Positions 30,318 through 31,328 of a stretch of 64,000 nucleotides of DNA are shown here, one piece after another. The position numbers were made by a program, and so were the translations under genes. Where the stretch lies: positions 12,834,001 through 12,898,000 of the forward strand of contig OX597840.1 of assembly GCA_951406725.2 (NCBI GenBank), in the 5' to 3' direction. Below the pieces are notes generated by a model that saw only the letters and a list, made by a program, of their open reading frames with translations, searched no databases and was not told where the DNA came from. Source of the stretch: Octopus vulgaris. Taxonomy: Eukaryota. Numbering within the stretch: position 1 is the stretch's first letter; the number at the start of each line of letters is the position of its first letter.

Positions 30318-31328
30318 AATTATTTTAGACCAAACCCCAAAATCCTTGTTGGAGAGGAAGCTGAAAAGAATAAAACTGTTCTTAATTTGCAGAATCCCAT
30401 TAAACATGGTCTTATTACTCACTGGGAGAATATGGAGAAAATCTGGCAACATGCATTCGAAGAGTTGAAAGTTGCAGCCGAAGACTATGCTGTCTTGTTG
30501 ACTGAGCCTGTCAGTAACTCTGAAACAAACAGAGCGAATATGGTTGAAATTATGTTTGAAAAGTTTCAAGTTCGTGCAGTAATGGTGGCTAATCAAGCTG
30601 CTTTGTCCCTCTTTGATTCTGGCCGTGTCACAGGTATTTCTGTGAATGTAGGCCATGGTATCACCCAAGTTGTCCCTATTTATGGAGCTTCAACTATAAA
30701 AGGAGCTACTTTCTGTCAGCATCAGAATATTACTGGTCTTGCCTTGAGAGATAACCTTAGAAGTATCTTGACTGAACGTGGCTACAGGTATGGTGACTCA
30801 ATGTCAGAAAACAGAACGTTAAATGACATCAAAGAGAAGCTCTGCTATGTTGCTCTAGACTTTGAACAAGAAATGCAGGCAGCAAAGTCTTCTAAAGCTT
30901 TGGAAAAGAGTCATGAACAATCTGATGGACAAATCATTACCATTGGCAATGAACGATTTCGAGTCCCAGAAGCTATTTTCAGCCCTTCTGATGGTGTTCA
31001 TGAGATGACTTATAACTCAATCATGAAATGTGATGAGGAAATTAGGAGAGATCTGTTTGCCAACATTGTGTTGTCTGGTGGTTCAACAATGTTTCCAGGT
31101 TTTGTTGAGCGTATGAAAAAGGAAATCAGTGCCTTGGCACCACCTAACACTGAAGTTAATATCATTGCTCTACCAGAACGTGAATACTCTCCATGGATTG
31201 GGGGTTCTAGATTGGCTAGTAGACCTCCCACTGATGATCTGTGGATTACAAAAGAAGAATATAAAGAATCTGACGCATCTCATGTCTGTAGGAAACATAT
31301 ACATAAAATGGAAAATTTGAGTCCTTAG
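30318..31328 (+). CDS. Divergent actin-like protein, coding exon 2 (336 codons + stop)
   Basis: Uninterrupted ORF with [85 protein letters not shown] and WIGGS. The acceptor TTATTATATTGCAG|AAT at 30317/30318 is phase 0. The ORF-track start at 30297 is a TTG lying in the intron. Confidence 0.93.

Follow-up and report, generated by a model that had tools for sequence, protein, structure and literature searches.

Introduction

Young, lineage-restricted duplicates of actin-family genes have been described as non-canonical Arps, among them Arp53D of Drosophila, D-ActL1-3 and Arp2D of the obscura group and the mammalian testis Arps, for which these reports describe rapid evolution and occasional pseudogenisation (PMC8291977, PMC7038667). 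Actins that do not polymerise have also been engineered, as in L266D, K113E, AP-actin (A204E/P243K) and DVD-actin (D286A/V287A/D288A), and each of these mutants damages one interface.

In F-actin the hydrophobic plug provides one of two lateral contacts. Most work on its role has relied on point mutants. Its tip comprises residues 266-269 (PMC3038201), and E270 and G268 are described as pairing with R39 and H40 in one of the two lateral contacts (PMC7247010). Published plug mutants impair filaments (PMC3038201, PMC7247010), as do the published K113 and DVD/AP mutants. According to the account in PMC11643313, the engineered terminators DVD- and AP-actin act by keeping one face intact.

The window analysed here, a 64-kb stretch of the Octopus vulgaris genome (G000:C27:12,834,001-12,898,000, on the contig carrying a tandem actin cluster), contains a two-exon actin-like gene with a shortened hydrophobic plug. 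The genes of this cluster are already in databases as "actin-like" or hypothetical. Among the papers listed on octopus and cephalopod actin expansions and on the O. sinensis and O. bimaculoides accessions, chiefly from openly accessible journals, we found no description of the cluster.

Results

Gene structure and sequence context

The gene encodes CAI9741794.1 (here P0001), a 374-residue protein identical to the exon-2 product; exons 1 and 2 (Table 1) translate in frame to exactly this sequence. A tandem duplication has placed a frameshifted copy of exon 1, together with its upstream region, into the intron, which also contains a satellite. The predicted model of the paralogue L003 (P0123) includes a spurious-looking exon apparently derived from similar repeat sequence. 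Several database models of the array (P0123, P0126, P0131, P0144 and P0147) are fused, mis-started or chimeric, so that its public annotation is unreliable. Three copies of an actin pseudogene fragment lie elsewhere in the window, and no further actin pieces were found in the 10 kb flanking it on either side.

Table 1. Features of the 64-kb window, numbered from its first nucleotide
Feature	Position	Strand	Remarks
Exon 1	11008..11121	+	38 codons, GT donor; encodes P1 loop and beginning of replaced D-loop
Intron	11122..30317	+	19.2 kb, GT...AG, phase 0
Duplicate exon 1 in intron	18945..19053	+	109 nt, frame mismatched to exon 2; within the ~8-kb tandem duplication
Exon 2	30318..31328	+	336 codons and TAG
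Shortened plug loop	30978..31004	+	9 residues against 15; 18-nt deletion junction after 30986 or after 30989
Actin pseudogene fragment 1	368..1230	+	full plug, frameshift and stops; nearest paralogue L005
Pseudogene fragment copy 2	39620..40460	+	same actin fragment
Pseudogene fragment copy 3 (inverted)	47786..48648	-	same actin fragment
Tandem duplication	10326-16556 and 18253-24572		~8 kb, 95-97% identity
Intron satellite	26145-29190		3 kb, 22-nt unit, ~138 copies
Segments with the three pseudogene-fragment copies	2-1471, 39178-40704, 47669-49087		96-97% identical, one inverted, ~200-nt insertion in each

Candidate RNA runs among the public data were judged to be RNA from spliced junctions and empty introns. 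In the RNA-like contigs cover is zero before position 30283; their match to the window breaks off at the acceptor, beyond which exon-1 letters follow, and spliced contigs come from at least two copies. The loose end of a contig from run X17 matches exon 1 as well as a near-identical exon-1 copy (L032). Most RNA-like contigs fit paralogues better than the exact P0001 copy, to which a piece of 84 letters from the beginning of exon 2 has just one mismatch. The depth of contigs across the gene was considered as an expression measure and rejected: it spreads several-hundredfold among RNA-like runs, but contig depth cannot measure expression.

A six-codon deletion in the hydrophobic plug

From position 30978, exon 2 encodes F-S-P-S-D-G-V-H-E (P0001 residues 259-267). 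Alignment to solved actins places a clean six-residue gap in this loop, and the DNA alignment an 18-nt in-frame gap of six codons. Actin residues 266-270 are missing in either register; the sixth is 265 by DNA alignment and 271 by protein alignment. The deletion thus takes out the plug tip (266-269), including G268, as well as E270, the partners of H40 and R39. Microhomology between the TCT repeats that the conventional actin L006 shows at codons 265 and 271 was considered as an origin and could not be fixed, because the pseudogenes and L005 carry other codons at these positions.

Public sequence data confirm the deletion. Counting contigs with at least 31 letters on each side of the site and no gap there, seven of eight runs bridge it: 4/4 in one set, with four organism labels (A, B, C and D), and 3/4 in the other. 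The exception is X17, whose pieces overlap the site but fail the bridging rule. One X8 record carries 15 additional letters at the site, which is what a paralogue lacking a single codon would show. At position 30982 all eight runs have A (Asn) at essentially full depth, and the serine that follows the phenylalanine (Ser260) is private to the P0001 copy.

Loop length is unchanged in 250 of the 287 actins that span the region (among 293 proteins compared, a sample biased towards hits to the P0001 query). In the same query-biased sample, six residues or more are lost in eight proteins, six of them from the octopus deletion clade and two environmental. The environmental proteins (P0202 and P0235) are independent divergent actins with plug deletions of 8 and 6 residues and few filament contacts, and may be gene-prediction artefacts. 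The six-codon loss is real and rare.

The original prediction, made from the window alone, was that the intact gene lacks six plug codons that the neighbouring pseudogenes retain. The loss itself is borne out by both alignments and by the bridging contigs, and all three window pseudogenes indeed have the complete 15-residue loop. Its restriction to the intact gene is true inside the window and false in the genome. A genome search gave 34 matches, and three of the copies in the tandem cluster, L002, L003 and L004, which are 87-91% identical to the P0001 gene and 30-130 kb distant, share the 18-nt gap. L004 carries a premature in-frame TAA; in L002 and L003 the exon-2 frames are open and in-frame exon-1 copies lie upstream. 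The idea that the deletion is an invention peculiar to the intact gene finds no support, since a copy with a stop codon shares it and since the D-loop, W-loop and hydrophobic cleft were lost before it.

Relatives and age of the deletion

The window pseudogenes are 87% identical to the paralogue L005 against 82% to the P0001 gene, and therefore belong to another branch rather than being its closest relatives. Across species, three O. sinensis proteins have the same plug gap, and two O. bimaculoides proteins (P0130 and P0131), sisters of the seven-row deletion clade with tree support of 100/99, keep the plug in loops of 15 and 14 residues, respectively. Octopus splits are given at 34 and 2.5 Mya (bioRxiv 2023.05.16.540928). 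Because the O. bimaculoides sisters keep the plug and O. sinensis shares the deletion, these published dates place the deletion at about 34-2.5 Mya. An unannotated deletion-bearing copy in O. bimaculoides is possible, since P0130 and P0131 are imperfect (gapped or fused) gene models.

Among the matches listed from these non-exhaustive searches, named close relatives come from three Octopus species only, and no squid or cuttlefish orthologue appears among the matches listed from the same limited searches. The dS to the conventional O. vulgaris actin L006 is 0.49 and unsaturated. Together with the close relatives listed, this dS marks P0001 as a recent, lineage-restricted duplicate of actin, as young non-canonical Arps are; alongside a tree built without canonical Arps (Arp1-Arp11), the same value argues against the ancient orthology, distinct from actin, that those proteins have.

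The cluster holds further divergent copies. A second actin subfamily (L011 and L013-L017, G000:C27:12.60-12.73 Mb), about 50% identical to P0001, has lost 5 residues near actin 232-236; its plug is polar and of full length, and it has orthologues in O. sinensis. Two exon-1 copies of the L005 gene, L036 and L038 (G000:C27:12.585-12.589 Mb), are both in frame.

Predicted fold and nucleotide site

P0001 belongs to the actin superfamily (PF00022, E=6e-99, 332 bits, residues 2-364) and is predicted to fold as actin. Its AlphaFold model has a pLDDT of 77 and a pTM of 0.79, with low confidence mainly at residues 31-58, and a Foldseek comparison of the model with actin gives a TM of 0.81. At the 22 positions that we take to form the nucleotide site, 14 are identical. 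P0001 retains D11, S14, K18, H73, Q137, G156 and G158; the changes G15Y, D154N, D157H, H161Q and K336E suggest, at the level of sequence, that ATP hydrolysis would be weak.

Filament contacts

Contact residues were counted as those named in PMC7247010 and PMC5059732. By this count P0001 keeps 3/8 pointed, 4/15 barbed and 1/7 lateral contacts, in total 8/30 (22/30 lost), against 189/341 positions elsewhere in the protein (55% identity; Fisher p=0.004). Among 75 non-octopus actins of similar divergence, only 4 keep as few. Taken per face, the depletion is not extreme, with 34, 17 and 12 of 86 background proteins as low at the pointed, barbed and lateral contacts. It lies within the range of other divergent actins, which tempers how special P0001 is. 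On a broader list of contact residues, 4/21, 9/28 and 3/17 are kept, in the same order.

The substitutions include K113E, H173G, E167G/Y169S, L242Q/P243S, I287E, I345R and L349R, F375 is lost, and the D-loop, W-loop, hydrophobic cleft and C-terminus are replaced relative to conventional actin; M283, D286, R290, P322, D244 and G245 are retained. P0001 thus has neither an intact plug with the lateral contacts R39-E270, H40-S265/G268 and K113-E195 nor an intact D-loop with its acceptor cleft and W-loop, and its identity to conventional actins is 53-58%. The residue comparison bears out the replaced D-loop noted in the original prediction. Depletion is just as strong in the O. bimaculoides proteins that bear the plug (5/30 and 7/20 contacts kept), and most of the contact losses of P0001 recur in these relatives. 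They share Y169S and I287E; P0131 also has I345R, and the D-loop of P0130 is already replaced. Because sisters that still bear the plug are as contact-depleted, we infer from the tree that degeneration of the filament surface preceded the plug deletion.

The sister paralogue L005 (G000:C27:12580284-12581219, minus strand; proteins P0146 and the C-terminal half of P0144) has a different profile. The L005 type keeps 11/15 pointed and lateral contacts against 4/15 barbed ones (p=0.03), and 2 of 86 background proteins are as asymmetric. The asymmetry is weaker on the broader list (p=0.15). Such a contact pattern would be the profile of a natural barbed-end terminator. With a dN/dS of 0.36 (p=0.0003), L005 is under clearer purifying selection.

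Selection

In a branch codon model, dN/dS was 0.13 for conventional actins and 0.36 for L005, compared with 0.88 on the stem of the deletion clade (p=0.64 against 1) and 1.59 in its crown (p=0.14 against 1), neither of which departs significantly from 1. L008, L009, L010 and L012 were excluded as distant, with dS saturated or nearly so, and L014 and L017 as near-identical to L016. All codon models were our own, and recombination among paralogues may affect their results. In the whole cluster 45-50% of sites are constrained (p<1e-10), and in the trimmed deletion clade the comparison of neutrality with M1a gave p=0.37-0.49. M2a was preferred over M1a across the cluster (p=1e-4 to 0.009), with p=0.06-0.11 in the trimmed deletion clade; an untrimmed M2a signal within this clade (p=0.0002) was lost after trimming the ends and was dropped.

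The stem is 0.44 substitutions per codon long with the frame open throughout, and a frame under neutrality would stay open over the corresponding 0.15 substitutions per site in about 1% of cases. All five indels of P0001 relative to actin are in frame. In the crown, the variation among six intact deletion-clade sequences stays away from the core (1/41 against 37/258, p=0.04; by rank test, p=0.0008). Avoidance of the core is borderline on the stem (p=0.06), and against O. bimaculoides P0131 it is null by Fisher test (p=1) with a rank-test p of 0.014.

Discussion

The evidence tips towards a family of actin copies that is young, spliced and restricted to Octopus, with a predicted actin fold and likely neither polymerisation nor co-polymerisation, in which the plug deletion was likely a late and tolerated change. 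A conventional actin would have been duplicated into a tandem array within octopods, and its barbed-end face and nucleotide loop may have been altered first; Y169S and H161Q are found in every cluster member, and D154N, D157H, I287E/R and I345R/K in most. The P0001 subfamily would then have lost the D-loop, with the plug, K113 and P243 going last, and the plug may have become dispensable after replacement of the D-loop and cleft. Its loss was probably a late consequence of leaving the filament and not the cause. Like the fly and mammal non-canonical Arps, the protein might now work as a monomer or, with partners specific to its lineage, as a subunit; it would probably be a poor ATPase.

The original prediction held that the protein should not form normal two-stranded filaments and could be a monomeric scaffold, a capper or a filament terminator. 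The contact residues, together with the published plug mutants as described in PMC3038201 and PMC7247010, indicate that P0001 likely forms no normal two-stranded filaments, and a monomeric scaffold would fit its sequence. Addition of P0001 to the end of a conventional filament, where it would block growth, is disfavoured and in our judgement very doubtful, because capping or termination needs one intact face and P0001 has none: its two longitudinal faces have degenerated, and so have its lateral contacts. The predicted fold and overall shape are retained and D244, G245, E241 and E205 are kept on the pointed face, which speaks for a capper, and the terminator-like asymmetry of L005 suggests that the ancestor may have been a terminator. 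The face asymmetry of P0001 itself is nevertheless 0.00, with 43 of 86 background proteins scoring as high, and L242Q/P243S and I287E fall on the sites used for AP- and DVD-actin. A fuller course of events, in which conventional actin gave rise to an L005-type barbed-end terminator and this to a monomer lacking the plug and with an impaired ATPase, is improbable. That monomer would evolve under diversifying selection and have a new octopus-specific role, for which the germline or a host-pathogen decoy could be suggested. Hardly more credible than capping is a divergent polymer of its own, either one protofilament or a rebuilt double strand, held by co-evolved new surfaces. Crenactin, reported to form actin-like filaments at about 20% identity and first seen as single-stranded, shows that low identity is tolerated (PMC5173319), and M283, D286, R290, P322, D244 and G245 are kept; but longitudinal contacts are damaged as much as lateral ones, two arginines (I345R and L349R) lie in the hydrophobic cleft, and the D-loop lacks its hydrophobic residues and varies among copies (6/8 codons).

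Birth-and-death decay, with copies transcribed but nearly unconstrained and the deletion as one of few frame-keeping indels, is unlikely but has to be taken seriously. The clade dN/dS of about 1, the stop in L004, the three pseudogenes and frameshifted exon 1 nearby and the changes in the nucleotide site all agree with it, while the small chance of an open frame across a neutral stem, the in-frame state of all indels, the avoidance of core positions by crown variation, the intact copies in two species and the constrained sites of the cluster speak against it. An assembly or individual-specific artefact might be suspected for a copy in a repetitive tandem array whose Ser260 codon is absent from the eight runs compared, but four loci, O. 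sinensis proteins and contigs of four organism labels all show the gap, which refutes this explanation, and we give it practically no credence.

The locus offers a natural spliced actin copy without residues 266-270, sisters at a distance of 34 My that still bear the plug, and graded paralogues nearby; together they form a series for the order of surface loss. It would also add cephalopods to the animals with young non-canonical Arps, which have been studied mainly in flies and mammals. Its value is tempered by the real chance that the copies are near-neutral, and they are known here from sequence, contigs and predicted fold.

With conventional actin (O. vulgaris L006/L007; PDB 4efh, 2oan) P0001 shares the predicted fold, the PF00022 domain and the seven retained residues listed above (D11 to G158); it differs in its overall identity, in the deleted plug tip and in a dN/dS of about 1 against 0.13. 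The sites of the engineered non-polymerisable actins are naturally changed in P0001 (266-270 deleted, K113E, A204S/P243S, I287E/D288E), and residue 287 is still Val in some octopus paralogues; unlike those single-interface mutants, P0001 is altered at all of the interfaces at once, with mostly different residues put in. In the divergent actins of Paramecium, as described in PMC1852557, the D-loop and hydrophobic plug are jointly poorly conserved in an expanded family, as in octopus, but by substitutions rather than by deletion of the plug tip, and the ciliate origin is independent. The octopus genes are, like the Drosophila and mammalian non-canonical Arps introduced above, young, rapidly evolving duplicates with occasional pseudogenes, and in contrast to them form a tandem array and have kept an intron. 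For the obscura Arps, retention of the motif for ATP binding and hydrolysis is reported, whereas the octopus family alters D154, D157 and H161. Male-germline expression is defining for the fly and mammalian genes in these reports, and the octopus likeness is one of sequence. The gene is a rare and real variant within an already known kind of gene, probably the young non-canonical Arps.
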